A stretch of DNA of 24,000 bases from Halodesulfurarchaeum sp. (GTDB taxonomy: Archaea > Halobacteriota > Halobacteria > Halobacteriales > Halobacteriaceae), in NCBI GenBank assembly GCA_034520565.1, contig JAXHNL010000002.1:1127722-1151721 (forward strand), written 5' to 3'. How positions within the stretch are numbered: position 1 is the stretch's first letter; each line of letters begins with the position of its first letter. Positions 3,075 to 24,000 of the stretch are shown piece after piece. The position numbers and the translations under genes are program-made. The notes under the pieces are model-generated. The model was given only the letters and a program-made list of their open reading frames with translations, had not been told where the DNA came from and did no database searches.

Positions 3075-5782
3075 TCAGTCGCCCTCGATGGCCTCGGTGA
3101 CCCGTTCGTGAAACGCCCGGAGCGCCGCGTCTTCGTCCTCGGCGAGCACGACGTCGCTCGCGGAGAGCGTGGCGAGCCCGAAGGAGAGGGGGCTGGGCGA
3201 GGAGAGCGTCTGGCTCCGGATGGCGATCGACCCGTCCTGAATGGCCTCGAGTATCTGCTCGATCCCCGCGAGGTCGAGTTTGTCCTCGATTATCTCGCGG
3301 TGGGTTTCCGCGAGCACGGCAAAATCCTCGAGGTTCTCGGCGAACCCGAGCAGCATTTCTGCTGAGACCTGTTGTCGGCTGGCGCTTTTCTCGTGGCCCT
3401 TGTACCGCTTGAGGATCATCAACGAACGCGTGGCGTTGATCCGGAAGTACCGCTCCCGGAGATCGGTGCCGTTGAGACTCGATTCGAGGAGATCCCGGGC
3501 CTCATCGGGGGTCGTGGATTCGAGTAGTCCGACCACGTCGACCTTGCGATTCAGCGGCATCGAGAGGGTAAAGCCCGAGTCGCCGACAGCGATCGTCACG
3601 TTGGCCGTGGCCTCGACGGCGATCTGGTGGGCGAGGATCCGCGAGAGTCCGTCGTTGAACCGCCGGCCGTACGGTCGAGTGAACGTAGTAGTCGGCGCTC
3701 GGTACTCGTCGTGGTCCGTGTCGCTCCTCGACGACGCAGTCGATCGGGTGTACTCACGCTCTCGGGACCGGCGTAGACGAGTTGCCGGTCGATCATCCGG
3801 GCCAGTGCCCTGACGCTTTCCTCGTCGATCGGCAACTCCCGAAGATGGACGCGGACCGCGCGGCCGCCCGCCATCGGCGATATCGAGGAGGCGTTCCTGA
3901 AACGCCGCAATCTCGACTCCGAGGTCGAAGGATCGGGGCAGGCGCTCGGAGTACCACGAGGGGACCGTCGCCCGCTCGCTCGTCCGGTCGACGTAGACCT
4001 TCGACCCGCGGCGGTAGCGGTACTCGTACCGTTCGCCGCCGAGGACGAAGACGTCTCCCGGCTCGAGGGTGTCGAGGTAGTCCTCGTCGAGGTCGCCGAC
4101 CCACTGGTCCTCCCCCCGGACGAAAACGTTGCAGGAAAAGGAATCCGGGATCGTCCCCACGTTCGTCATGTAGATGACGCGGGCGAGCCGGCCGCGTTTG
4201 CCGAGAAGCCGCGCTCCAACCGGATAGTCGGGATAGTGGTGTTCGCCATCGGGCGGGTCGTTCTCGTCGCGCCAGATCTTCGCGTAGACGTTCCGGTCCT
4301 CCATCCCCTCGTAGTCGGCGCGGAGGTAGCGGAGCAACTGCTCGAATTCCGCGTCGGTGTAGTTCCTGTAGGGATAGGCTCGACGGAGGATCGACTCGAC
4401 TTCCGCGAGCGGTCGGGGGCCGTTGATCGCCATTCCGTAGACCTGCTGGGCGGCGACGTCCTGTGCTCGTTCGGGGACGTAACACCCGATCGACGAACCC
4501 GGCCTCGGCCCGGTCGAGCATCGACGGTACACTCGACGAGTTCGTCCAGATCGAGCGCGAACACTCGGCCGGTGACGGTCTCACCGATTTGATGGCCGGC
4601 CCGCCCGACACGCTGGAGGAGCGCGGCGACGGACTTCGGGGAGCCCACTTGAACCACCAGGTCGATGTCTGGCATGTCGATTCCCAGTTCGAGACTCGTC
4701 GAAGTCGTCACCACGTCGAGGGCCCCGTCTTTCAATGCCTGCTCGACCTCCTGTCGTCGATCCTTGGAGAGGGACCCATGATGGGCCCCCGATTTCTCCT
4801 CCGCTACGTCATCGCGCTCCCGGAGGTTCTCCAGCACGCGTTCGGCCCCGGACCGGGTGTTCGTGAACACGAGCGTGCTGTCGTGTGTCTCGATCAGCTC
4901 GGCGAGCTGGTCGTAGAACCGCTCCTGTATCACCGTCCGCGGCGTTTCGATCAGGTCCGCGGTCGGCGTGACGAGTTCCATATCGTACTCCCGCATCGAA
5001 CTCGGGTGTCGACCTCGCTGCGGACCTCGTCTCGGTCGTCCGTCCTCGCGAGCCCGCCGAGAAACGTCCGCGATCGTCTCGAGGGGCTCGACCGTGGCCG
5101 AACAGCCGATTCGAGTGGGCTCGTCGTCCGCGAGGGCGGCGAGCCGCTCCAGGCTCACGGCGAGGTGGGTCCCGCGCTTGTTGTCAGCGAGGCTGTGGAT
5201 CTCGTCGACGATGACGTACTCGACCGTCCGGAGTTTCTCCTTGAACTTCGGGGAGTTGAGCAGGATGGCGAGCGTCTCCGGCGTCGTGTTGAGGATGTGT
5301 GGGGTCTCCTCGAGCATCGCCTGCCGGGTGGCCGAATCCGTGTCGCCGTGCCTGATCGCGTGACGGATCTCTTCGACGTCCTCGCCCCGGTCATCGAGGC
5401 GGTCGTAAATCCCGTCGAGTGGAGCTTCGAGGTTCCGATGGATATCGTTCGCGAGGGACTTCAGCGGGGAGACATAGAGGCAGTAGACCGTGTTCTCGAG
5501 CCCCTCGGCTCGCTCGCGAACGAACAGTTCGTTGATGATCGCGGTGAAGCTCGCCAGGGTCTTGCCGGATCCGGTGGGGCTCGCGATGAGGGTGTGATCG
5601 TCCTCGGCGATGTGTGGAATCGCCTCGCGCTGGGGCGGCGTGAAGTAGCCCCCATTTTCCGGGACGAACTCGCCGAACTGGTCCATCCACCACTCCCGGA
5701 CGGCCGGTTCCAGGGTTTCGAGGAGGTCGCCGTCGGGGACCGAGTCGGGATCGGGCGCCACCGCGGGTATCTCCGTACCCAT
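3075..5782 (-). pseudogene. lhr: Lhr-type (large helicase-related) DEAD/DEAH-box superfamily-2 helicase, about 900 aa, interrupted by at least 7 frame changes
   Basis: N-terminal core motifs are ASPTGSGKT (Walker A), VIVDEIHS (DExH), CSAT, TSTSLELGID and QRVGRAGH. The C-terminal Lhr-associated region is readable by hopping between track ORFs 4166..5953, 3793..4611, 3075..4532 and 3596..3910, e.g. ECTV|MLDRAEAGFVDRV|YVPERAQDVAAQQVYGMA and LLDIA|MAGGRAVRVHLRELPIDEESVRALARMIDRQLVYAG. The ATG at 5780-5782 gives MGTEIPAV. Confidence 0.85.
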
Positions 5783-5930
5783 TCGATACCGGATAGGACT
5801 TCCGGGGGGTTGTAGCTGTTGGCCGAGCCGGTTTCCGACCGGCCGCTCAACCATTGCGAGCGTCGGGCCGGACCGGGGCCGATTCGTGGCTGGCCACAAC
5901 CGTTTTCTCCAATCGATCCCGACACCCCCC

Positions 5931-6662
5931 ATGCAGCTGATTTTCCTCGGCACCGGTTCCGCGATGCCGACTGCCGACCGGGTCCAGTCCGGGCTCCTCC
6001 TCGAGGATGGTGATCGCCGACTCCTCGTCGACGCCGGGAGCGGGGTTCTTCACCGACTTGCAGCCACCGAAACGGGATACGAGGGTGTGGAGACGGTCCT
6101 ACTCACCCATCACCACCTCGATCACGTCGCCGATCTCATGCCACTCTTCAAAGCCAGGTGGCTGGCCGGCGAATCGTCGCTCACGGTTGTGGGTCCCCCG
6201 GGGACTGAAGCGCTCGTTGACGGCCTGCTCGAGGTCCACGACTACCTCCGGGGGCGGCTGTCGGTTGCCGTCAGGGAACTCGAACCCGGCCAGGCCACTG
6301 TCGCCGGATTTGCCGTCACCGCCATGGCGAATCGCCATTCGATGGAGGGCTTTGCCTACCGGTTCGACGACCGGCTCACGATCTCCGGTGACACCCGGGA
6401 GTTCCAGGCTCTGGTGGACTTCGCCGAGGTCGGATCAGTCCTCGTTCACGACTGCTCGTTCCCCGACGACGTGGACCTCGATACCCACACGACGCCGACG
6501 AAATTGAGCCGGGTCCTCGACGGCGCCGACCTCGACCGGGTCTACCTCACCCATCTCTACCCCCACACCGACGGGAAGCACGCGGCCATGGTCGAGACGA
6601 TCGAGTCCCGGTTCGATGGCGAGGTGCTGGTCGCCGAAGACGGCATGCAGATCGGCGTTTGA
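5931..6662 (+). CDS. MBL-fold metallo-hydrolase (beta-lactamase / RNase Z-like superfamily)
   Basis: [14 protein letters not shown] start and HxHxDH motif ([13 protein letters not shown]), with downstream conserved His/Asp ([15 protein letters not shown]). I prefer the internal ATG at 5931 over the track start at 5886, because the family typically begins at the beta-strand LIFLGTG. Confidence 0.85.
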
Positions 6663-6673
6663 GAGCTGCAGGA

Positions 6674-7739
6674 TCACTCGATCGGATACCGCAGCAACGC
6701 CGCCACACCGCCCAAATTTCGCAGTTGTTTCCCCGGATCGAACTCGTGGGAGAAGACGGTGATTTCCCCGCCCTGGTTTTCGACCTGCCGGATCAGGTCG
6801 TTCGCATCCAACTTCCAGTCGCCCTCGCCGGCCCGCTCCAGTCGGAGCCGCTCGTCGAGAATGAGGAGTTGCTCGACGGCCCCGTACTCGGTTGCCTGGG
6901 CGACGTCGTCGAGCCCGTAGGCGGCCGCCCCGTCGCCGCCTATCCGCTCTGTCAACTCGTCGATGGCCGCGCTTTCCTCGGCGATCCGGGTCTCGCGACG
7001 GACGTCGGCGACGGCCCCGCGCTTGAGCACCTCGTGGACGCCGCGACCCCCGACCGCGCTCGTGTCGACGACCGTGACGGTCTCGGTGATCTCGGGATGG
7101 GACTCGATATGTTCGAGGGCGTCCTGTTTGGTGAAGCCGGGACCGGCGAGGATGACGGCGTCGACGTCCAGGCGGCCGAGGCGCGTCCGCGAGTTCCTCG
7201 AAGAGTTCCTCGCGCCCGCCCGTGTACTCGCCCTTGCCGGTCGTATTCGTTAGCGAGACGTACTCGTCGACGCCGTACTGGGCGACGGTGTGGACGTGGG
7301 CCTCGCCCTCGCCGACGGTGGCAATGGCGACGGTGGGCTGGTCCGTGGCTTCCTCGGCCTCCTCGATGCGCTCGCGCTGGTCCGGTTGCCAGATCTTCTC
7401 GATCTCGATCGTGTCGTGTTCCTCGACGTTGATAGTGTGATGGAGGCCGAGCTGGTCCTCGCGGGAGCAGTCTTCGATGGTTCCTCCCACGCGGAGCCGG
7501 TTCGAGAACTTGTGGAACTCGACGTCCTCGACGGCGAGTGTGACGTGCATGTGCTCGCGTTCGCCGCCGGTGTCCCGCATGTTCTCCTCCTGGCGCTGGA
7601 TGCGACGATGGGTGTCCCCGGAGACGAAATCGCCGGGCTCGATGACGTAGGTGAGATGCCAGAGGTCGTCGAGACTTTCGGGGACGAGGCTCACCGCCTC
7701 GCGACCGCCCTCCCGTGCCGACCACTCCCTGACGTGCAT
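6674..7739 (-). pseudogene. pelA: Pelota (aPelota/Dom34 homologue, mRNA surveillance and ribosome rescue), broken by one frameshift near 7181
   Basis: The N-terminus MHVREW...[33 protein letters not shown]... is in the frame of ORF 6435..8072 up to [11 protein letters not shown]. The continuation [57 protein letters not shown]... reads only in the frame of ORF 6674..7030, which ends ...[29 protein letters not shown]. Total length is 1066 nt, i.e. 355 codons plus one extra base. Confidence 0.85.
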
Positions 7740-7779
7740 GGTGGTGCTTTGCCGCGTTCGCCTAAGTCGATTCCCTTTC

Positions 7780-9876
7780 TCACTCGGTGATCCGGCTCGT
7801 CCCCGGTGGCATGAACTTCTGAATCTCGTCCGGACTGGCGACCTTCCGGACGAACGAGGTGTCCGCAAAGCGCTCCCGGAACTCCCGATAGAGTCGCTTT
7901 GCCACGTCGCCCTGGGCGTAGCGACCGGGTTCGATTCGGATCGACGTCTCGGCCTGGGCCTCGATTGGTTCGGGTGGACCGCCGACGACCCGCGTTTCCG
8001 GCTCGCAGGCGATGCCCACTGCGGCCCCGACCGGGGTGTCCTCGAAGTAGGTGCGGTCGCCGCGGATGGCAAACCCGCCCTTTTCGAGGTACTCGCCGCT
8101 CTCCGGGGTTTTCGAGACCTGGTCGCCGTCGACCATGTAGACGTCCCCGCTGTACCGTTCGTCCTTCCAGACCGTGGAGAAGGTCACGGCGAACTGGGCG
8201 GCCTCCATGAGGCTTCGCTCGGGAACGTCGATGTCTTTTGTCGGCTCGCTCGGCTCGCTCGTTTTGAGGATCGTCGCCGGGCCGCCGTGGGCCTGTGTGT
8301 GGAAGAACCGATCTGCGTGTTCCATGTACTTCTCGACCAGCTCCTCGTTCTGATCGGCGTTCCGCCCACCCAGCACGAGAAAGCCGTCGCTCGTTCGGAA
8401 CCAGCGAAAGCGGTCGTACCACTTCTCGGGTTTCCTGATCGGGACTGATTTCCGGGCGAGCCAGTCCCTGGATGCCGGCTTCTCGTCTGCCCCGTCGTCT
8501 TCCGTGTCCCCCGCGACGAACTCCTCACGGCGCTTTTCGAGCGCGGCGAGCTCGGCACGGGTGTCCTCGAGGGCTTCGAGAGCCCCCTCGCGTTTTGCCT
8601 CGATTTCCTTCGCACCGGTGTACAGCCGATCGGCGTTCTTCTCCACGCCCGACCGGGGATCGAGCGAGATCTCCTGTCCGTCGACCTCGATCCGGACCCG
8701 TGCCTCGGATTCGTCGATCCCGGACACCGCCTCGGCAGCTTCGATCCCCTCCGCAGCTCCTTTCGCGAGTCGCTCTTCGATGTCTGTCCAGCCGTGTCCG
8801 GCCTCCCGTGCCGCCCTGACAGTCTCCAGGATCTCGTCGACGAGTTCGTAGTTCGCATAGAGGAGTTCGGCTTTCTCCCGCTCCGCATCAGCCTCGGCTT
8901 CGAAGTCCTCGATGGCCCGTTCCTGTTGTTCGATGATCCGCTCGCGGCGCTCGATTTCGGCGTCGAAGTTCGGCCCCGCCGAATCGCCCCCCGTTTCGGG
9001 CTCGCTCTCGCTTTCGGCGAGCGAGCGGAAGTAGGAATCGCAAGCCGCGTTGAACGAGTCGAAGGCCTCGCTTTCGAGGTGGCCGTACTCCTCGAGCGGG
9101 ACCGGCGTGACGTCGACCGGAGCACCATCCTCGCGGTACACTCGCGGATCGGTGTTGCCCTCGCGAAGCCGATCGAGCAAGTCGCGCATCTCCGCGTAGA
9201 GGCGGTCGAAATCCCCCTCGTCGGCGTCGGCGATGTCCTTCGTCTTCTCGACTCCAGCCCGGGTACAGAGTTCCTCGCCGTAGGTGCCACCGAGATTGAG
9301 CTGTGTGGCGAGGGTCCGGACGAGGTCGGTATCCGACTCGGCCATGGCCGTCCTGAACGTCTCCCGATCCATGTCGAGCGGGTTGATCCGGGTCTGGGGG
9401 AAGCCATACTGGGCCCCCGGCGCGACGGTTCGAGACTGGAGACGCACGGTCGAGAGCGATTCCACGACCGTGCCGCTCTCGTCGAGTACCGCCAGGTTCC
9501 CCTCGCCGAAGAGTTCGGCGACGACGGTGGTGTCTTCGTCGCCGCGTCGAAACTCGAACACGAGGATGCGGTCGAAGCCATGCTGGGAAACCGTCGCGAG
9601 GTCCGCGCCCGCGATACGGTTGCGGAGCATTTTCGCGAAGTTCGGCGGCCGGTCGGGGGCGGGCGGTACGAACTCCGGCTCGGTGACGTGGACGCGTTTT
9701 TGCTCGCCGACCTGCACCAGCAACTCGATACGGCCTCGATCGTAGTCCCGCATCTTGAGACGGACGAGATCGTCCGGGTAGAGATAGGCCTTGTCGACGG
9801 TCGCGCCGGTGTAGGCCCCCAGCTCCCCCACAAGGGCGACCAGTCCGACGCTCGTGACTTCCCGCTTCGGGTCCAT
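7780..9876 (-). CDS. NFACT-family protein (archaeal Rqc2/NEMF/RqcH/FbpA homologue; predicted ribosome quality-control factor)
   Basis: Intact ORF of about 700 aa. NFACT-N-like N-terminus: [15 protein letters not shown]...VRLKMR...[16 protein letters not shown]. Long E/A/R-rich coiled-coil centre. DUF814/NFACT-R-like block: [49 protein letters not shown] prefer the start MDPKREVTS (9874-9876); the track start is 9897. Confidence 0.85.
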
Positions 9877-18580: not shown

Positions 18581-19507
18581 TCAGGCCCGGTCGAGTCGCG
18601 AGAGCCCCTGCCAGATGGCGTTGACGAGTTTCGTCTCCCCCGTCCCCTCGGCGTCGTCCCAGCCCCGGGCGAGGGCGTCTTCGAGCACTTCCAGCGAGTG
18701 GTTCTCGAAGTTGTTCACGCCGCGGAACGTCTCCAGGGCCTCTCGCTCGTCCGCAGCGAACGTCGCCGTCGGCGATCCGTCGTAGTGGCCGAGGCCGGCG
18801 AGGGCCTCGAGGACTGACGCCGCGGTGGGGCCGGAGAGCTCTCGCACGTCCTCGGGTGTCTCGCGTTCGAGCAGCGTCACGTCGTAAATCCGGAAGACCC
18901 GCTCGAGTTCCGCGATCGGGGACTCGTGGTCGTCGACCCTGACGTCGATCCAGCGATCGTTTCGGCCGTCATAGCCGCCCTCGGGCTTGACGACGTACAT
19001 GGCGGCTGACTGTTCGCCCCGTCGATCCCCGCCCGCTTCGTTTCCGGCCTCGAGGGCCGCGAGCAGCCGCTCCGGAAGGCCACCGTCGGTCGTCTCGTAG
19101 GCGTCGGCCATTGCCTCGATAGTATCTGGCCCTTCGAGGATGTTTCCCTGTATGGTGTACTGGTCCCCCTGGCGATCGCCCGCGTGATCGAGACATTCTT
19201 CGCCTGTGTACGCCGCGACGGAGCCGTCCGTTCCGACGACGCCAATCTGCCGGCTCTCGGCGTCCTCGTCAGCGGCGGTCAGTTCTTCGATCACCGTTTC
19301 CGCGTCGGCTCCCTCTCGAAGCAGTTCCAACCCATCTGGGCCGTAGGCCACGTTGGCGTAGCTCTGTGTGGCGATCGCTCCCGCGTCGGCCGCGGCGAAC
19401 GGCACGACCGACCCGACGCTCACGAACTTCGACTGCACGGCGACGCCGAGTGCCTCCTGTTCCGGGTCCCGTGCCACGATCGAGAACGTTGCCGGCCTGA
19501 CTGGCAT
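18581..19507 (-). CDS. DUF1028 family protein (Ntn-hydrolase-like fold) with C-terminal helical extension
   Basis: 308 aa. The N-terminus PATFSIVARDPEQEALGVAVQSKFVSVGSVVPFAAADAGAIATQSYAN is the characteristic DUF1028 start, followed by GDRRGEQSAAMYVV. Confidence 0.8.
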   Translation of the reverse strand: MPVRPATFSIVARDPEQEALGVAVQSKFVSVGSVVPFAAADAGAIATQSYANVAYGPDGLELLREGADAETVIEELTAADEDAESRQIGVVGTDGSVAAYTGEECLDHAGDRQGDQYTIQGNILEGPDTIEAMADAYETTDGGLPERLLAALEAGNEAGGDRRGEQSAAMYVVKPEGGYDGRNDRWIDVRVDDHESPIAELERVFRIYDVTLLERETPEDVRELSGPTAASVLEALAGLGHYDGSPTATFAADEREALETFRGVNNFENHSLEVLEDALARGWDDAEGTGETKLVNAIWQGLSRLDRA

Positions 19508-19593
19508 ACCGTCGCCTTTCGCCGGAGGAGCAAAAGGTTTGACCCGCCCGTGGCACCACGAGGCCTTTGGTCCCCGGGCGCGAAGCTTTCTTC

Positions 19594-20313
19594 ATGGAGG
19601 TTCGGGGAGAACGGGAGTGCAAGAACTGTGGCACCCGGTGGTCCTACTACGAGACGGGGAGCCCTGCCTGTCCGGAATGCGGGAGTCTGCAGAGCGTCGG
19701 CCTCGGCGAGCGACGACTCCACACCGACCGCCCCGCCGAACTCGACCTGGATCTGGCCATTGACGCGCTGTCCGAGGGGCGGTATCGAGCGGCCGGAGAG
19801 GCCGCCGACGAGACCGCCCGCGAATACGTCCGCCGCCGGGGATTTATCAACGCCGGTGAACTTCGGTCCCTGACGGATCAGTACCTTCTCGCAGCCGAGA
19901 TTCGCCACGTGGCCCAGCTCTTGCGGCTCGTCACCCCTTCGCTGATCGACGACGGTGACATCGACCTCGAGTACGTCCGGACGCTGTTCGAGGCTGCGGC
20001 GACGGATGACCGTCCAGCGGCCGTGGACGTTCCGGATAGTATGGCCGGGCCGCGGGGACTGGGGGTTGCAGACGCGGTCGAGGCCTACCACGACGCGCTC
20101 AAACACTGGGTGGACGCCTCGGACGCCGAAGTGGCGGCTGGTGGGTTACTGGATCGATTGGACAGCCACGTCCGCCGGGTCAACGCCCTCGAGGGGACGA
20201 TTGATCCCCAGGAGGCCGAGAAACTCGTCGCTGTGGCTCGCTCGCTGGGGACGTACGTGCGGACCGGCTCCGAACGGGCGGCGGTCGAACGGGCACTGGA
20301 TTCACTCGAGTGA
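19594..20313 (+). CDS. Zinc-ribbon protein with a long helical acidic C-terminal domain; conserved hypothetical
   Basis: MEVRGERECKNCGTRWSYYETGSPACPECGS (CxxC...CxxC), then about 200 aa of Ala/Glu/Leu-rich sequence. I prefer the internal ATG at 19594 over the track start at 19567. Confidence 0.65.
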   Translation: MEVRGERECKNCGTRWSYYETGSPACPECGSLQSVGLGERRLHTDRPAELDLDLAIDALSEGRYRAAGEAADETAREYVRRRGFINAGELRSLTDQYLLAAEIRHVAQLLRLVTPSLIDDGDIDLEYVRTLFEAAATDDRPAAVDVPDSMAGPRGLGVADAVEAYHDALKHWVDASDAEVAAGGLLDRLDSHVRRVNALEGTIDPQEAEKLVAVARSLGTYVRTGSERAAVERALDSLE

Positions 20314-20357: not shown

Positions 20358-21605
20358 TCACTTGTAGAGGGGGTGCTCGTCGGTCAGTCGGTCGACTTCC
20401 TCGCTGACTTCGGTCAGCACGCTCTCGTCGTCGATGTTGTCGAGGACGCGGCCGATGAGCTGGCCGACCTCCCGCATCTCCGCCTCGTCGAACCCGCGGG
20501 TTGTGAGCGCCGGCGAGCCGATGCGGATGCCCGATGGCTCCTTGGCCGATCGAGTCTCGCCCGGAACGGTGTTGGCGTTGAGAACGATCCCGGTCTCTTC
20601 GAGGGCCTCCGCGGCGTCGTTCCCGGTGACCTCCGGATGGGAATCCCGCAGATCGACGAGGATCAGGTGGGTGTCCGTTCCGCCCGAGACGAGGGTGAAG
20701 CCCTGCTCTTGCATGGACTCTCCAAGCGCGCGAGCGTTGTCGACGACCTGCTCGATGTACTCGTCGAACTCGGGTTCGAGCGCTTCGCCGAAGCCGACCG
20801 CCTTTCCGGCGATGTTGTGCATCAGCGGGCCGCCCTGGATGCCCGGGAAGACGGTTCGGTCGATCACGTCGGCGTGTTCCTCGTCCGTCAGGATCATGCC
20901 CCCGCGCCCGGCCCGGATCGTCTTGTGTGTCGAGCCGGTGACGAAGTCCGCGATACCGACGGGATTGTCGTGAGCGCCTGCCGCGACGAGGCCGGTGATG
21001 TGAGCCATGTCGGCGAGGTGGTAGGCGCCCACGGCGTCGGCGGTTTCCTGGACGCGTTCCCAGTCGACCACTCGCGGGTACGCCGAGTAGCCCGAGACGA
21101 TGATGTCTGGCTCGAACTCGCGGGCGTGTTCGTCCAACCCTTCGTAGTCGATGCGGCCGGTCTCGGCGTCCATCTCGTACTGCTCGACCTCGTAGAGCGT
21201 TCCCGAGAAGTTGACCGGATGGCCGTGGCTGAGATGACCCCCGTGTTCTAAGTCCAGCGAGAGGATCTTGTCGCCTGGCTCGAGGACGCTGAAGTACACC
21301 GCCATGTTCGCCTGGGTTCCGCTGTGTGGCTGAACGTTGGCGTGGTCCGCGCCCCAGAGTTCTTTGGCTCGCTGGCGGGCCAGTTCCTCGACCGTATCCG
21401 CGTTCTCACACCCGCCGTAGTAGCGGGCCCCGGGATATCCCTCCGCGTACTTGTTCGTGAGCGCGCTGCCCTGGGCTGCGAGGACGGCCTCGGAAACGTG
21501 GTTCTCGCTCGCGATCATCGCCAGCGTGTCCTCCTGCCGTGTCGTCTCGCCTTCGAGGGCCTCGGCAACCGCCGGATCACTCGACTGTACCGGGTCGAAG
21601 TCCAT
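20358..21605 (-). CDS. glyA: Serine hydroxymethyltransferase
   Basis: 415 aa. MIASENHVSEAVLAAQGSALTNKYAEGYPGARYYGGCE, HLSHGHPVNFSG, and the PLP-lysine motif VTGSTHKTIRAGRGGMIL. Confidence 0.95.
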   Translation of the reverse strand: MDFDPVQSSDPAVAEALEGETTRQEDTLAMIASENHVSEAVLAAQGSALTNKYAEGYPGARYYGGCENADTVEELARQRAKELWGADHANVQPHSGTQANMAVYFSVLEPGDKILSLDLEHGGHLSHGHPVNFSGTLYEVEQYEMDAETGRIDYEGLDEHAREFEPDIIVSGYSAYPRVVDWERVQETADAVGAYHLADMAHITGLVAAGAHDNPVGIADFVTGSTHKTIRAGRGGMILTDEEHADVIDRTVFPGIQGGPLMHNIAGKAVGFGEALEPEFDEYIEQVVDNARALGESMQEQGFTLVSGGTDTHLILVDLRDSHPEVTGNDAAEALEETGIVLNANTVPGETRSAKEPSGIRIGSPALTTRGFDEAEMREVGQLIGRVLDNIDDESVLTEVSEEVDRLTDEHPLYK

Positions 21606-21627
21606 ACCTCATGTGGGAACGGGGCTC

Positions 21628-21634
21628 TTTGTAA
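21628..21634 (-). promoter_or_regulatory. TATA-like box (TTACAAA on the minus strand) about 23-29 nt upstream of the glyA ATG
   Basis: The minus strand reads ACTTACAAAGAGCCCCGTTCCCACATGAGGT-ATG. The spacing fits a leaderless or near-leaderless haloarchaeal transcript. Confidence 0.3.
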
Positions 21635-21729
21635 GTCTGTCTACCCCTGAAAAATCCGCGACCGGGACCCGCTATCCTTTTGGCGCTGGTCCCGGTTGCA
21701 ACGGCCATGCACGAAGGATGGGAGGACCA

Positions 21730-23472
21730 ATGGCCGTCGTACTGATCGGCGAGGGACCGGCTGTCGAATCCGCCGAGGCGATGCTCGAGGATTCGGACGT
21801 GGCAGTTACCCGGGGGAGCCTCGCGGACATCCCGGCGGCCGACCTGGCCATCGTGGTCGGGCTCGCCGGAAGCGAGGGGTTCGAGACCGCGAACCAGCGG
21901 GCGATCGAATCCGAAACGCCCTGGATCGCCGTCGAACTCGGGGGGATCGGTGGCGTGCCAGTGGCCGGACTGTCGGCTGCGGTCACCACCCTTCAGCCCG
22001 GCTACGTTTGCTATCAATGTCTCCGCTCGCGCGTTGCGGCAAACGGGGTCGACGGGGCCGACGAGGCGAGTGCCGAACGTCCGGCCGCACGACTCGCCGG
22101 CTCGTACGCCGGGCTCCAGGCGATTCGGGCGTTTTCTGGCGCGGAGGTCGCCGGCGTGGTCATCGAGGTCCCCTACGGAGAGCACTCCCTGCTTCCGGTA
22201 CCGAACTGCCAGCATGCACCGGCCAGCGACCGCTCGCTCTCGCTTTCCGAGCACGATCGCACCCTCGAGAAGGCCATCGAGGCGGCCGAACGAGCCGTGG
22301 GCGGTCGGCTGGGAATCGTGCCCGCAATCGGCGAACACGATTCGTTTCCGCTCCCCTACTATCTCGCGACGGTGACCGACACGTCCGGGTTTAGCGACGC
22401 CGTCGCTCCCGATCGGGCGGCAGGCGTTGCGCCCACGTGGGACGGCGCGTTCATGAAGGCGCTCGGCGAGGCCCTCGAACGCTACAGTGCGGCTGTTTAC
22501 CGGACCGACGACCTCAAGAGGGTGGCTCCGGCGGCGATCGACGGTCCCAAACTGGAGTCGTACGTCAGCGTCGGCAACGCTGCTGTTGGAACTGAAACTG
22601 GTGCTGACACCGACGCCGGCGCGGACGACTCGGGTGGGACGATTCCGGTCGTCGGCGGCATGGACCTCCACACCGAGAACCCGGTCGAGCTTCCCGCTGA
22701 CCTCGTGTTTTACCCACCACCGGACGGCGAGCACGGCATGGCGATCACGACCGGTCTCGGACTCGGGAGTGGCGGGGTCGGGGCAGTGCTGTCCGGCCTG
22801 TATGAGGTGATCGAGCGGGACGCCACCATGCTCGCCTGGTACTCCACGTTCGAGCCGCTGGGACTGGACGTGAGCGACGCGACCTTCGAGACGATGGTCG
22901 ACCGGGTCCGGGGAAACGACCTCTCGGTTACCCCGCTGCTGGTTACCCAGGACGTCGACGTGCCGGTCATCTCAGTTGCCGTCCATCGCGAGGAGTACCC
23001 CCGATTTGCGCTCGGCTCGGCCGCGGACCTCGACGCCGAAACCGCGGCCGTTGACGCCCTTTCGGAGGCAATCCAGAACTGGATGGAATTGCGGGATCTC
23101 GGACCCGACGAAGCGGCGGATGTCGGCGGCGAGATCGGCAGCTACGCCGAGGATCCGGGCGTCGCCGAATCGATGCTGGAACCCGCGGAGACCGTTCCGG
23201 CTGCCGCCGTCGGTCCCGAGGCCGTTCCCGAGGGCCGGGCCGAACTCGACGCGGTGCTCGATCGGATGGCCGACGCCGACCTCGACGCCTTTGCGGCGTC
23301 AGTAACACCACGCGACGTCGAGCGGCTTGGATTCACCGCCGTCCGCGTGCTGTCGCCCTCGGCCCAGCCGCTTTTCGTCGACGAACCGATCTTCGGTGAG
23401 CGGGCTCGGACCGTTCCCGCCGACCTCGGGTTCGAACCCCGGCTCGACCGGGCGTTTCACCCCTATCCCTGA
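21730..23472 (+). CDS. ycaO: YcaO-domain protein fused to an N-terminal ThiF/E1-like (cyclodehydratase C-type) domain
   Basis: About 580 aa. N-terminal Rossmann-like MAVVLIGEGPAVES and LQPGYVCYQCLRSRV (compare the PCYRC motif of ThiF/MoeB). YcaO core: PLPYYLATV...AAGVAPTWDGAFMKALGEALERYSA, AITTGLGLG, LSGLYEVIERDA. The extreme C-terminus is ...RAFHPYP. A GGAGG lies 4 nt upstream of ATG 21730; an alternative ATG is at 21718. The track ORF start at 21451 overlaps glyA and is not credible. Confidence 0.85.
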   Translation: MAVVLIGEGPAVESAEAMLEDSDVAVTRGSLADIPAADLAIVVGLAGSEGFETANQRAIESETPWIAVELGGIGGVPVAGLSAAVTTLQPGYVCYQCLRSRVAANGVDGADEASAERPAARLAGSYAGLQAIRAFSGAEVAGVVIEVPYGEHSLLPVPNCQHAPASDRSLSLSEHDRTLEKAIEAAERAVGGRLGIVPAIGEHDSFPLPYYLATVTDTSGFSDAVAPDRAAGVAPTWDGAFMKALGEALERYSAAVYRTDDLKRVAPAAIDGPKLESYVSVGNAAVGTETGADTDAGADDSGGTIPVVGGMDLHTENPVELPADLVFYPPPDGEHGMAITTGLGLGSGGVGAVLSGLYEVIERDATMLAWYSTFEPLGLDVSDATFETMVDRVRGNDLSVTPLLVTQDVDVPVISVAVHREEYPRFALGSAADLDAETAAVDALSEAIQNWMELRDLGPDEAADVGGEIGSYAEDPGVAESMLEPAETVPAAAVGPEAVPEGRAELDAVLDRMADADLDAFAASVTPRDVERLGFTAVRVLSPSAQPLFVDEPIFGERARTVPADLGFEPRLDRAFHPYP

Positions 23473-23526
23473 TGTCGTTGCTCGGGCGTGGGTTTGAATC
23501 CTCTCGCTGATAGAATCGACCGGTTC

Positions 23527-24000
23527 TTAGACGCCGAAGGTCGCTCGGAGCATGTCCCGGGTTCCCGGGCCGAGTCCGACGGCGACGACCGCGATCAACA
23601 GGAGCGTGCTGAAGCGTGGACTTTCGACGATCATTTGCCGATCGAAAAGCCCCGTCACGATCACTGCGGCCGCGATTTTCAACACCAGGAATCCCCAGGC
23701 GACCCCGATGACCGCGGTGACTCCCTCGGGCACGACGCTTATCGTGAGTTCGATGATCCACCGGTTGACCGGGTGTTTCGGAACCATGTCGGCGACGAGT
23801 CCGAGTTCGGCACCCCAGTCGATGGCCAGGACGTTCGCCAGTCCATCGACCGAATGGGCCCAGAGGATCAACCCGCCGAGAATCGGTGTTCCGCTGGCAA
23901 CTTCTGGAACGTATCGTCGGATCGCCCACCAGCCCACGCCAGCGATGAGCGTCGCGCCGCCGATCGTCAGGACCGTGAAACTCGGATGAAATTCGACTTC
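23527..24000 (-). CDS. DUF63-family archaeal integral membrane protein, 3' part; the start lies beyond the right edge
   Basis: The frame is open from the window edge. ...FHPSFTVLTIGGATLIAGVGWWAIRRYVPEVASGTPILGGLILWAHSVDGLANVLAIDWG...VPKHPVNRWIIE...LLIAVVAVGLGPGTRDMLRATFGV is multi-pass hydrophobic. The family call is from memory of DUF63 sequences. Confidence 0.65.
   Translation of the reverse strand, partial: EVEFHPSFTVLTIGGATLIAGVGWWAIRRYVPEVASGTPILGGLILWAHSVDGLANVLAIDWGAELGLVADMVPKHPVNRWIIELTISVVPEGVTAVIGVAWGFLVLKIAAAVIVTGLFDRQMIVESPRFSTLLLIAVVAVGLGPGTRDMLRATFGV

Follow-up and report, generated by a model that had tools for sequence, protein, structure and literature searches.

The closest described relatives of the gene analyzed here are the haloarchaeal cyclodehydratases that Cox, Doroghazi & Mitchell (2015, PMC4603692) named "haloazolisins" and assigned to about 100 clusters. 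These authors described the proteins as very divergent, truncated and fused, with the peptide-binding region gone and about 200 aa lacking at the N-terminus; they predicted 31 Ser-rich precursors near some of the members, and they doubted that the family makes a thiazole/oxazole-modified microcin (TOMM). Costa et al. (2023, PMC9953058) then showed that the ycaO gene of Haloferax mediterranei is transcribed, that its deletion mutant is viable with unchanged anti-haloarchaeal activity, and that the precursors predicted in Haloferax overlap with folD and are interrupted by stop codons in its sister species. They found ycaO and its surroundings, including the serine hydroxymethyltransferase (SHMT) gene glyA, in all haloarchaeal genomes and a credible cluster lacking, reported Fourier-transform infrared (FTIR) differences of the deletion mutant in lipid-assigned bands, and suggested a role outside the RiPPs (peptides made on the ribosome and modified after translation). 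In this study we examined a member of the family within a stretch of 24,000 nucleotides from Halodesulfurarchaeum sp. (assembly GCA_034520565.1, contig JAXHNL010000002.1, positions 1,127,722 to 1,151,721), referred to below as the window and numbered from its first letter. Its ycaO gene, which encodes a 580-aa fusion of a short E1-like domain with a YcaO domain, is the Halodesulfurarchaeum orthologue of the haloazolisin family, and the finding is therefore not new. A first-pass annotation made from the letters alone had put the gene forward as the best candidate for an uncharacterized system in the window: its orphan reading is sound and no published substrate was found in the literature searched, whereas the novelty falls away with the two papers above. 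Our analysis indicates that the gene probably encodes an ATP-using enzyme that activates backbone amides, acting on a substrate encoded elsewhere, probably a conserved cellular protein and not a secreted RiPP.

The window protein and the proteins of several Haloferax loci are orthologues with 49-52% identity over their full length, share the truncated, fused architecture of a C and a D protein with a barely recognizable C domain, and have in common the block folD-glyA-(tbsP)-ycaO-aliA. The Halodesulfurarchaeum locus differs in having no tbsP upstream of ycaO, in its 124-bp spacer between glyA and ycaO, and in an additional acidic loop at residues 284-301. In Haloferax volcanii the orthologue is presumably HVO_2860, because HVO_2859 is AliA and HVO_2861 is TbsP, a regulator that has been characterized (PMC11023807).

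Profile searches placed the protein in the YcaO superfamily, as had been expected from its motifs. The Pfam model PF02624 matched with an E-value of 2.9e-41 and 142.3 bits against a cutoff of 25.7, covering profile positions 2-324 of 325; this match spans aa 236-549 of a 584-aa translation from an alternative upstream start, and all other residue numbers given here refer to the 580-aa protein. The best NCBIfam model was that of the SagD family, TIGR03604, aligned over its full length (1-377 of 377) at 200.5 bits against a trusted cutoff of 219.25. Neither the equivalog model for McrA thioamidation, TIGR03266 (63.3 bits, cutoff 365), nor the E. coli-type YcaO model, TIGR00702 (36.9 bits, cutoff 75.65), reached its threshold. 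The three acidic motifs for ATP and Mg2+, LGEALERYS (E247, E250, R251), YEVIERDA (E359, E362, R363, D364) and SEAIQNWME (E446, Q449, E453), are invariant in an alignment of 59 homologues, as is G7 near the N-terminus. In the profile alignment the first two correspond to the ExxER and ExxERD signatures of LynD, TruD and MJ1094 (LCEAVERYSG and FMELVERDG in LynD, CMEAIERFSA and LEIIERDA in MJ1094), and the third to the conserved TEV..Q segment of these enzymes. Judged by this conservation and alignment, the haloarchaeal enzyme looks catalytically competent. At the C-terminus, H577, P578 and P580 are invariant among the 59 homologues, defining a terminal H-P-x-P, and the alignment runs to residue 770 of the 775 in LynD (...QMNP), with HPYP meeting the start of the Pro-rich LynD tail. 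All motifs quoted in the first-pass annotation (VVLIGEGPAV, CYQC, ALGEALERYSA, GLYEVIERDA and the terminal FHPYP) were recovered in the translation.

The first ~235 residues matched no Pfam or NCBIfam model, the TOMM C-domain and docking models included, and the N-terminal domain was recognized by its fold. An AlphaFold2 model built from the 59 homologues, with a predicted local distance difference test (pLDDT) score of 91.9 and a predicted template-modelling score (pTM) of 0.91, displays a beta-alpha-beta pattern in this region, with the first Rossmann strand at residue 2. When the model was compared with the PDB by Foldseek, the best match was full-length LynD (E = 1.4e-29, TMq 0.71), followed by MusD and TruD, and the N-terminal domain matched ThiF (1zkm, E = 1e-6) and MccB (3h9q). 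The matches reach every solved YcaO (4v1v, 7u58, 4bs9, 6peu, 6cib, 4q86, 6gri), the YcaO-only structures of MJ1094, Methanopyrus kandleri YcaO, E. coli YcaO and McbD being ranked after the fused heterocyclases. These matches establish that the assignment as an E1-like/YcaO fusion is correct, which bears out by fold what had been proposed from short motifs and on which the sequence profiles are silent for the N-terminal part. Within this domain C94 and C160 are invariant and C97 is conserved in at least 90% of the 59 sequences; CYQC aligns with CWDC of LynD and CWHC of TruD. By analogy with ThiF, MoeB and LynD, residues C94, C97, C160 and the His or Cys at 162 are presumed to form a structural Zn site. 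The profile alignment maps aa 9-116 onto LynD 124-225, that is, past the N-terminal domain of LynD; because of this, and because the model opens with a Rossmann strand at residue 2, we conclude that the leader-binding winged-helix RiPP recognition element (RRE) is absent.

The family defined by this architecture is large and confined in its taxonomy. A protein search returned more than 1,500 homologues, of which the top 120 are all full-length haloarchaeal proteins with 50-100% identity, and orthologues across Halobacteria share 49-56% identity over the full length. Scanning one genome for each species confirmed relatives in at least 512 species-level genomes. When the library was clustered at 50% identity, only ~46 clusters were found at E < 1e-30; beyond them, at ~100-120 bits, come stand-alone YcaOs of ~440 aa that match residues ~177-580 only, which makes the short E1-like domain specific to the family. 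The divergent members that could be named, Salinarchaeum and Halorutilales, still belong to Halobacteria. The gene is chromosomal, inherited vertically and present across the class.

No partner of a modification system accompanies it. The genes of the window have housekeeping functions (an ABC transporter, Lhr helicase, NFACT, Elp3, thymidine kinase, an endonuclease III-like protein, DUF1028, DUF7117, glyA, ycaO and PF01889), and its sole flavoprotein is an FMN_red (PF03358) gene 6.5 kb away that is not of the nitroreductase/SagB type. Neither in the window nor in 80 orthologous loci, collected by seeded tblastn, did we find a precursor, SagB-type dehydrogenase, TfuA, protease or exporter near ycaO, in agreement with what had been read from the flanks alone; TfuA is likewise absent from the annotated loci, and no small open reading frame (ORF) is conserved across the 80. 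The small Cys/Ser/Thr-rich ORFs in the 17-24 kb part of the window are all alternative frames of real genes, which upholds the earlier statement that no such gene is present. On the contig of an 80%-identical sister Halodesulfurarchaeum, the surrounding 10 kb on either side contain a LysW/Arg biosynthesis cluster beyond PF01889 and no nitroreductase, TfuA, protease or exporter. Apparent precursors were rejected in two cases: a 57-aa ORF upstream of ycaO in Halorutilales is the N-terminus of the YcaO protein itself, split off by a masked stretch, and two small ORFs beside a divergent member encode Zn-ribbon-like and helix-rich proteins on the opposite strand.

The YcaOs nearest to the family from outside provide a control for this absence. 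With ~100-120 bits and 32-35% identity, they sit in ThiF-YcaO-nitroreductase operons with Cys-rich precursors. At locus L087 (4491-8186) a precursor ending in ...CCCCCCCCC, with nine cysteines, is followed by ThiF, YcaO and a nitroreductase, and locus L088 (5069-8452) holds a 304-aa uncharacterized protein, YcaO, a nitroreductase and an 82-aa acidic peptide with a ...SPACCSAASST core. Since operons and precursors are plain to see at these genes, the absence of partners at the haloarchaeal ycaO is real and not a failure of detection. The contig of L088 resembles that of a haloarchaeon, with haloarchaeal-type BAT/HTH_10 regulators and dodecin, so that a true TOMM cluster may exist beside the housekeeping YcaO in some haloarchaea.

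Comparison with characterized YcaO systems shows how far the resemblance goes. With LynD, TruD and PatD (PDB 4v1t, 4bs9) the haloarchaeal protein shares the E1-like plus YcaO fold (E = 1e-29, TMq ~0.7), and it also has their CxxC and ATP/Mg motifs and, like them, a C-terminus that contains Pro; it is nevertheless ~200 aa shorter, has no RRE, shows 18-20% identity, ends in PxP instead of PxPxP, stands without precursor, protease or other cluster genes, and is distributed class-wide instead of patchily. MusD (PDB 7u58) has the same two-domain fold (Foldseek E = 6.5e-26), but belongs to a RiPP cluster and is an ATP-dependent peptidase. Canonical C-D-B operons for TOMMs comprise a separate E1-like protein, a SagB-type nitroreductase and Cys-rich precursors, none of which lies beside ycaO here. 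The best precedent for a housekeeping role is given by the YcaO-TfuA enzymes that thioamidate a glycine of McrA (MJ1094, M. kandleri YcaO), which are archaeal and chromosomally conserved, share the YcaO fold and motifs, and act on a cellular protein, not on a RiPP. They differ in having no E1-like domain, whereas the gene described here has no TfuA nearby and Halobacteria have no methyl-coenzyme M reductase (MCR).

Taken together, the class-wide occurrence, the chromosomal inheritance and the constant lack of precursor, dehydrogenase, protease and exporter make a substrate encoded elsewhere, and a cellular protein, the most likely interpretation, and the partner-free 80 loci and the out-of-family control support the first-pass suggestion to this effect. 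Its author had made that reading depend on three points, and on each the outcome was favorable: the YcaO placement holds, the orthologues are not adjacent to a precursor plus dehydrogenase, and no published substrate came to light in the literature searched. In the proposed mechanism, the YcaO domain would bind ATP and Mg2+ and phosphorylate a peptide or protein substrate at the oxygen of a backbone amide, which a nucleophile would then attack; if the attack came from an adjacent Cys, Ser or Thr side chain, an azoline would form, which would stay unoxidized because no dehydrogenase is present. The shortened, presumably Zn-binding E1-like domain, having lost the RRE, probably serves a structural role in dimerization or activation, as in LynD. 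A more specific version, in which a class-wide modification peculiar to Halobacteria (azoline, thioamide or amidine formation, or ATP-dependent cleavage) is made in the backbone of a conserved cellular protein recognized without an RRE, is one that we put forward tentatively.

Several points weigh against this interpretation. The RRE is missing, which leaves no evident means of recognizing a peptide or protein; the tail is PxP-COOH and not the full PxPxP; the TIGR03604 score remains below its trusted cutoff; and the fused architecture also serves other chemistry, such as the ATP-dependent peptidase activity of MusD. No paper giving a substrate or product turned up in the literature searched, and the deletion mutant grows normally (Costa et al. 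2023), so any modification is non-essential in laboratory conditions. The cyclodehydratase-type fused architecture claimed by the first-pass annotation is supported by the LynD/TruD/MusD fold and by SagD as the best profile, while its missing RRE, its PxP-COOH tail and its subthreshold TIGR03604 score mean that membership in the azoline-forming class is not established. An azoline would be the most likely product, although the same architecture in MusD can cleave peptides.

The orthologous neighborhoods, counted over loci with enough flank, contain a recurrent block: DUF7117 -> folD <- glyA <- (690-aa protein ->) tbsP -> ycaO -> <- PF01889 <- IMPase-family gene, where IMPase denotes inositol monophosphatase. 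PF01889 lies next to ycaO in convergent orientation at 55 of 75 loci, and tbsP, a 272-aa gene product matching PF19138/PF23336, lies directly upstream on the same strand in 48 of 76; further upstream, glyA occurs in 44, folD in 35 and DUF7117 in 32 of 64 loci. The neighbors reported for the window, a divergent glyA and a convergent DUF63 gene, were both verified. As to whether a glyA-ycaO-DUF63 arrangement is conserved, as the first-pass annotation had asked, the two outer genes recur, whereas in most genera tbsP intervenes between glyA and ycaO; it is missing from this position in Halodesulfurarchaeum and Halococcus, which is why glyA and ycaO are direct divergent neighbors here. The adjacency of glyA is inherited synteny. 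A conserved protein of ~690 aa lies upstream of tbsP-ycaO in 21 of 64 loci, for instance at L012 4836-6911 (+), and is co-directional with both genes in Haloarculaceae, Halorussus and other genera; it has no Pfam or PDB sequence match, and by eye it carries putative His...Cys dyad-like motifs (FVHYIGHC..., FFLNACGSY) resembling caspase/CHAT-type peptidases.

The most persistent feature of these neighborhoods is the convergent pair of ycaO and the PF01889 gene. Formerly DUF63, this family is named AliA_AliB in newer Pfam; the membrane protein gene of the first-pass annotation was therefore correctly placed as convergent, but it is no longer a domain of unknown function. In the work of Hong et al. 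(2025, PMC12462473), the thioether archaeol lipidation of archaeal lipoproteins was shown to depend on AliA (HVO_2859) and AliB, and YcaO and an IMPase-family gene were listed among the aliA/aliB neighbors. The PF01889 gene of the window corresponds to AliA/HVO_2859. The median stop-to-stop gap between ycaO and aliA is ~145 bp, with about 20 bp or less in 16 of the 55 loci and 54 bp here (23473-23526); with spacers this short, many genomes must have overlapping 3' ends or terminators of the two genes, and deletion of either gene may affect the other. In Salinarchaeum (40% identity) the pair is kept with a 12-bp gap and all other neighbors differ. Fourteen Natrialbaceae loci have none of the block neighbors and show instead SPFH, an Na+/H+ exchanger, an RNA-binding protein, a small Tat/lipobox-type protein, a cupin, cytidine monophosphate kinase and inosine monophosphate dehydrogenase; more divergent members have still other gene contexts. 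The convergent downstream gene in Natrialbaceae is not aliA but encodes a small acidic protein that carries a twin-arginine signal and an LSGC resembling a lipobox (…RRTVLRTAGVAATIGLSGCTD…), a predicted lipoprotein found at L023 9855-10397 (-) and at 11 other loci of this group. Its position may be a coincidence, though a curious one given the pairing with AliA elsewhere.

The most obvious alternative to a cellular substrate is that the enzyme is, as the family name implies, the maturase of a genuine RiPP, heterocyclizing a small Ser/Cys-rich precursor encoded at a distance to give a secreted "haloazolisin". The SagD family as best profile, the D proteins of canonical TOMM operons as closest out-of-family relatives, and the Ser-rich precursors predicted by Cox et al. 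(2015) all speak for it. We regard it as unlikely all the same, since RiPP clusters are normally patchy while this gene is chromosomal, conserved throughout the class and vertically inherited, the RRE is gone, dehydrogenase, protease and transporter are missing from the 80 loci, and the Cys/Ser/Thr-rich ORFs of the window are alternative frames; in addition, the Haloferax candidate precursors run over folD and are broken by stop codons in sister species, and the deletion mutant retains its antagonistic activity (Costa et al. 2023). A non-catalytic or accessory scaffold, comparable to what has been proposed for E. coli YcaO when RimO methylthiolates ribosomal protein S12, would agree with the presence of E. 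coli YcaO among the fold matches, and Joint Genome Institute (JGI) annotations of homologues carry this very function. It is very improbable: the strictly invariant ATP/Mg residues point to catalysis, the fold is far nearer to LynD/TruD (E = 1e-29) than to E. coli YcaO (1e-13), and rimO is absent from the neighborhood in the window and the orthologous loci. Because TIGR00702 falls far below its cutoff, the JGI name is probably an over-propagated label from the clusters of orthologous groups (COG). The frequency of glyA and folD upstream raises the speculative idea of a non-peptide amide as substrate, for example the cyclodehydration of 5-formyltetrahydrofolate to 5,10-methenyltetrahydrofolate by an analogue of 5-formyltetrahydrofolate cyclo-ligase. 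SHMT is a known source of 5-formyltetrahydrofolate, and from the known chemistry of both enzymes the reaction would formally be of the YcaO type, in which the amide oxygen is phosphorylated, a nucleophile, here nitrogen, attacks and phosphate is lost. However, both glyA and folD lie on the other strand, usually parted from ycaO by tbsP and sometimes by the 690-aa gene, the linkage is missing in Natrialbaceae, Halovenus and Salinarchaeum, and in its architecture and C-terminal tail the protein is like enzymes that modify peptides, so that we consider this idea the least credible and extremely improbable.

A functional coupling to AliA, in which YcaO would modify AliA itself, a lipoprotein precursor or a factor of membrane biogenesis, has a slim chance of being correct, lower than that of the RiPP maturase and above that of the scaffold. 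It draws on the frequency and tightness of the convergent pairing, on its retention in the divergent Salinarchaeum, on the inclusion of YcaO among the AliA/AliB neighborhoods of Hong et al. (2025), and on the changes in lipid-assigned bands of the deletion mutant (Costa et al. 2023). Convergent genes are not co-transcribed, however, and Natrialbaceae, Halorutilales and one more divergent lineage do not keep the two genes together; AliA spans Euryarchaeota and DPANN, whereas this YcaO is limited to Halobacteria, and the YcaO model has no predicted membrane or secretion features. The infrared change could itself be a polar effect of the deletion on aliA, and the band near 1740 cm-1 could be the ester carbonyl of polyhydroxyalkanoate in H. 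mediterranei. For an enzyme acting on a conserved cellular protein, the persistence of the pair is a hint of a possible target in the biogenesis of membranes or lipoproteins.

The coordinates of the features are collected in the table below. The ycaO ORF is intact and uninterrupted on the + strand, with its stop codon at 23470-23472, and its GC content by codon position (0.77 at the third position) is like that found for the remaining real genes of the window. The start at ATG 21718 given earlier is possible and would add the residues MGGP. ATG 21730 is more likely, because an NCBI protein of 100% identity (P0001, 'YcaO-like family protein [Halodesulfurarchaeum sp.]') has 580 aa, because homologues begin with M-x-V at this point, and because a GGAGG sequence lies 4 nt upstream. 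The acidic loop has pLDDT values below 50, and the other aligned homologues show a gap in its place.

Table. Positions of ycaO, its domains and motifs, and the adjacent genes in the 24,000-nucleotide window.
Feature	Position	Strand	Description
ycaO gene	21730..23472	+	580-aa E1-like/YcaO fusion, orthologous to the haloazolisin-type cyclodehydratase of haloarchaea
Short E1-like (ThiF-like) Rossmann domain, aa 1-155	21730..22194	+	Fold comparison; no winged-helix RRE ahead of it
CxxC motif C94/C97 (CYQC)	22009..22020	+	With C160 (22207-22209) and H/C162, presumed structural Zn site
YcaO domain, aa 179-580	22264..23469	+	PF02624, TIGR03604 and motif alignments
Acidic disordered loop, aa 284-301 (...TETGADTDAGADDSGG)	22579..22632	+	Lineage-specific
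C-terminal HPYP	23458..23469	+	Variant, ending in PxP-COOH, of the Pro-rich tail seen in azoline-forming YcaOs
glyA (serine hydroxymethyltransferase)	20358..21605	-	PF00464, E = 3.7e-150; divergent to ycaO
glyA/ycaO intergenic region	21606..21729	.	124 bp, divergent; GGAGG at 21721-21725; position occupied by tbsP in most other genera
PF01889 membrane protein gene, 3' part	23527..24000	-	PF01889 match; convergent with ycaO, gap of 54 bp
DUF7117 gene	19567..20313	+	PF23430, E = 2.3e-80; part of the conserved syntenic block

Elsewhere in the window, an Lhr-type helicase gene at 3075-5953 (-) is split into two overlapping ORFs in different frames, one at 4166-5953 with the DEAD and Helicase_C domains and the other at 3075-4532 with WH_Lhr and DEAD_assoc, which suggests a frameshift, either in a pseudogene or through an indel error in a metagenome-assembled genome. 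A Pelota/aRF1-like gene at 6674-7790 (-) has an apparent frameshift near 7250, its N-terminal part (MHVREW...) being in one frame and its eRF1_2/eRF1_3 part in another. With two broken genes in 24 kb, indels from the assembly may be suspected; the ycaO ORF is unbroken. The DUF1028 protein at 18581-19507 (-) carries a C-terminal 'putative peptidoglycan binding' domain (PF08823), although it comes from a haloarchaeon, which has no peptidoglycan.

YcaOs that act on cellular proteins instead of antibiotic precursors are rare, the established case being the thioglycine of McrA in methanogens. To what the literature holds, the window adds that ycaO is partnerless in a further genus, one that has even lost the upstream tbsP, that the most persistent neighbor of the gene is the recently characterized lipidation enzyme AliA, and that the published "lipid" phenotype of the deletion deserves re-reading for polar effects on aliA. 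The question of the substrate has already been posed in the literature and is testable, as haloarchaea are genetically tractable and a deletion mutant exists. If the interpretation favored here is true, haloarchaea would provide a second, class-wide case of a YcaO acting on a cellular protein, and with it a new housekeeping protein modification and a form of substrate recognition that does without the RRE.

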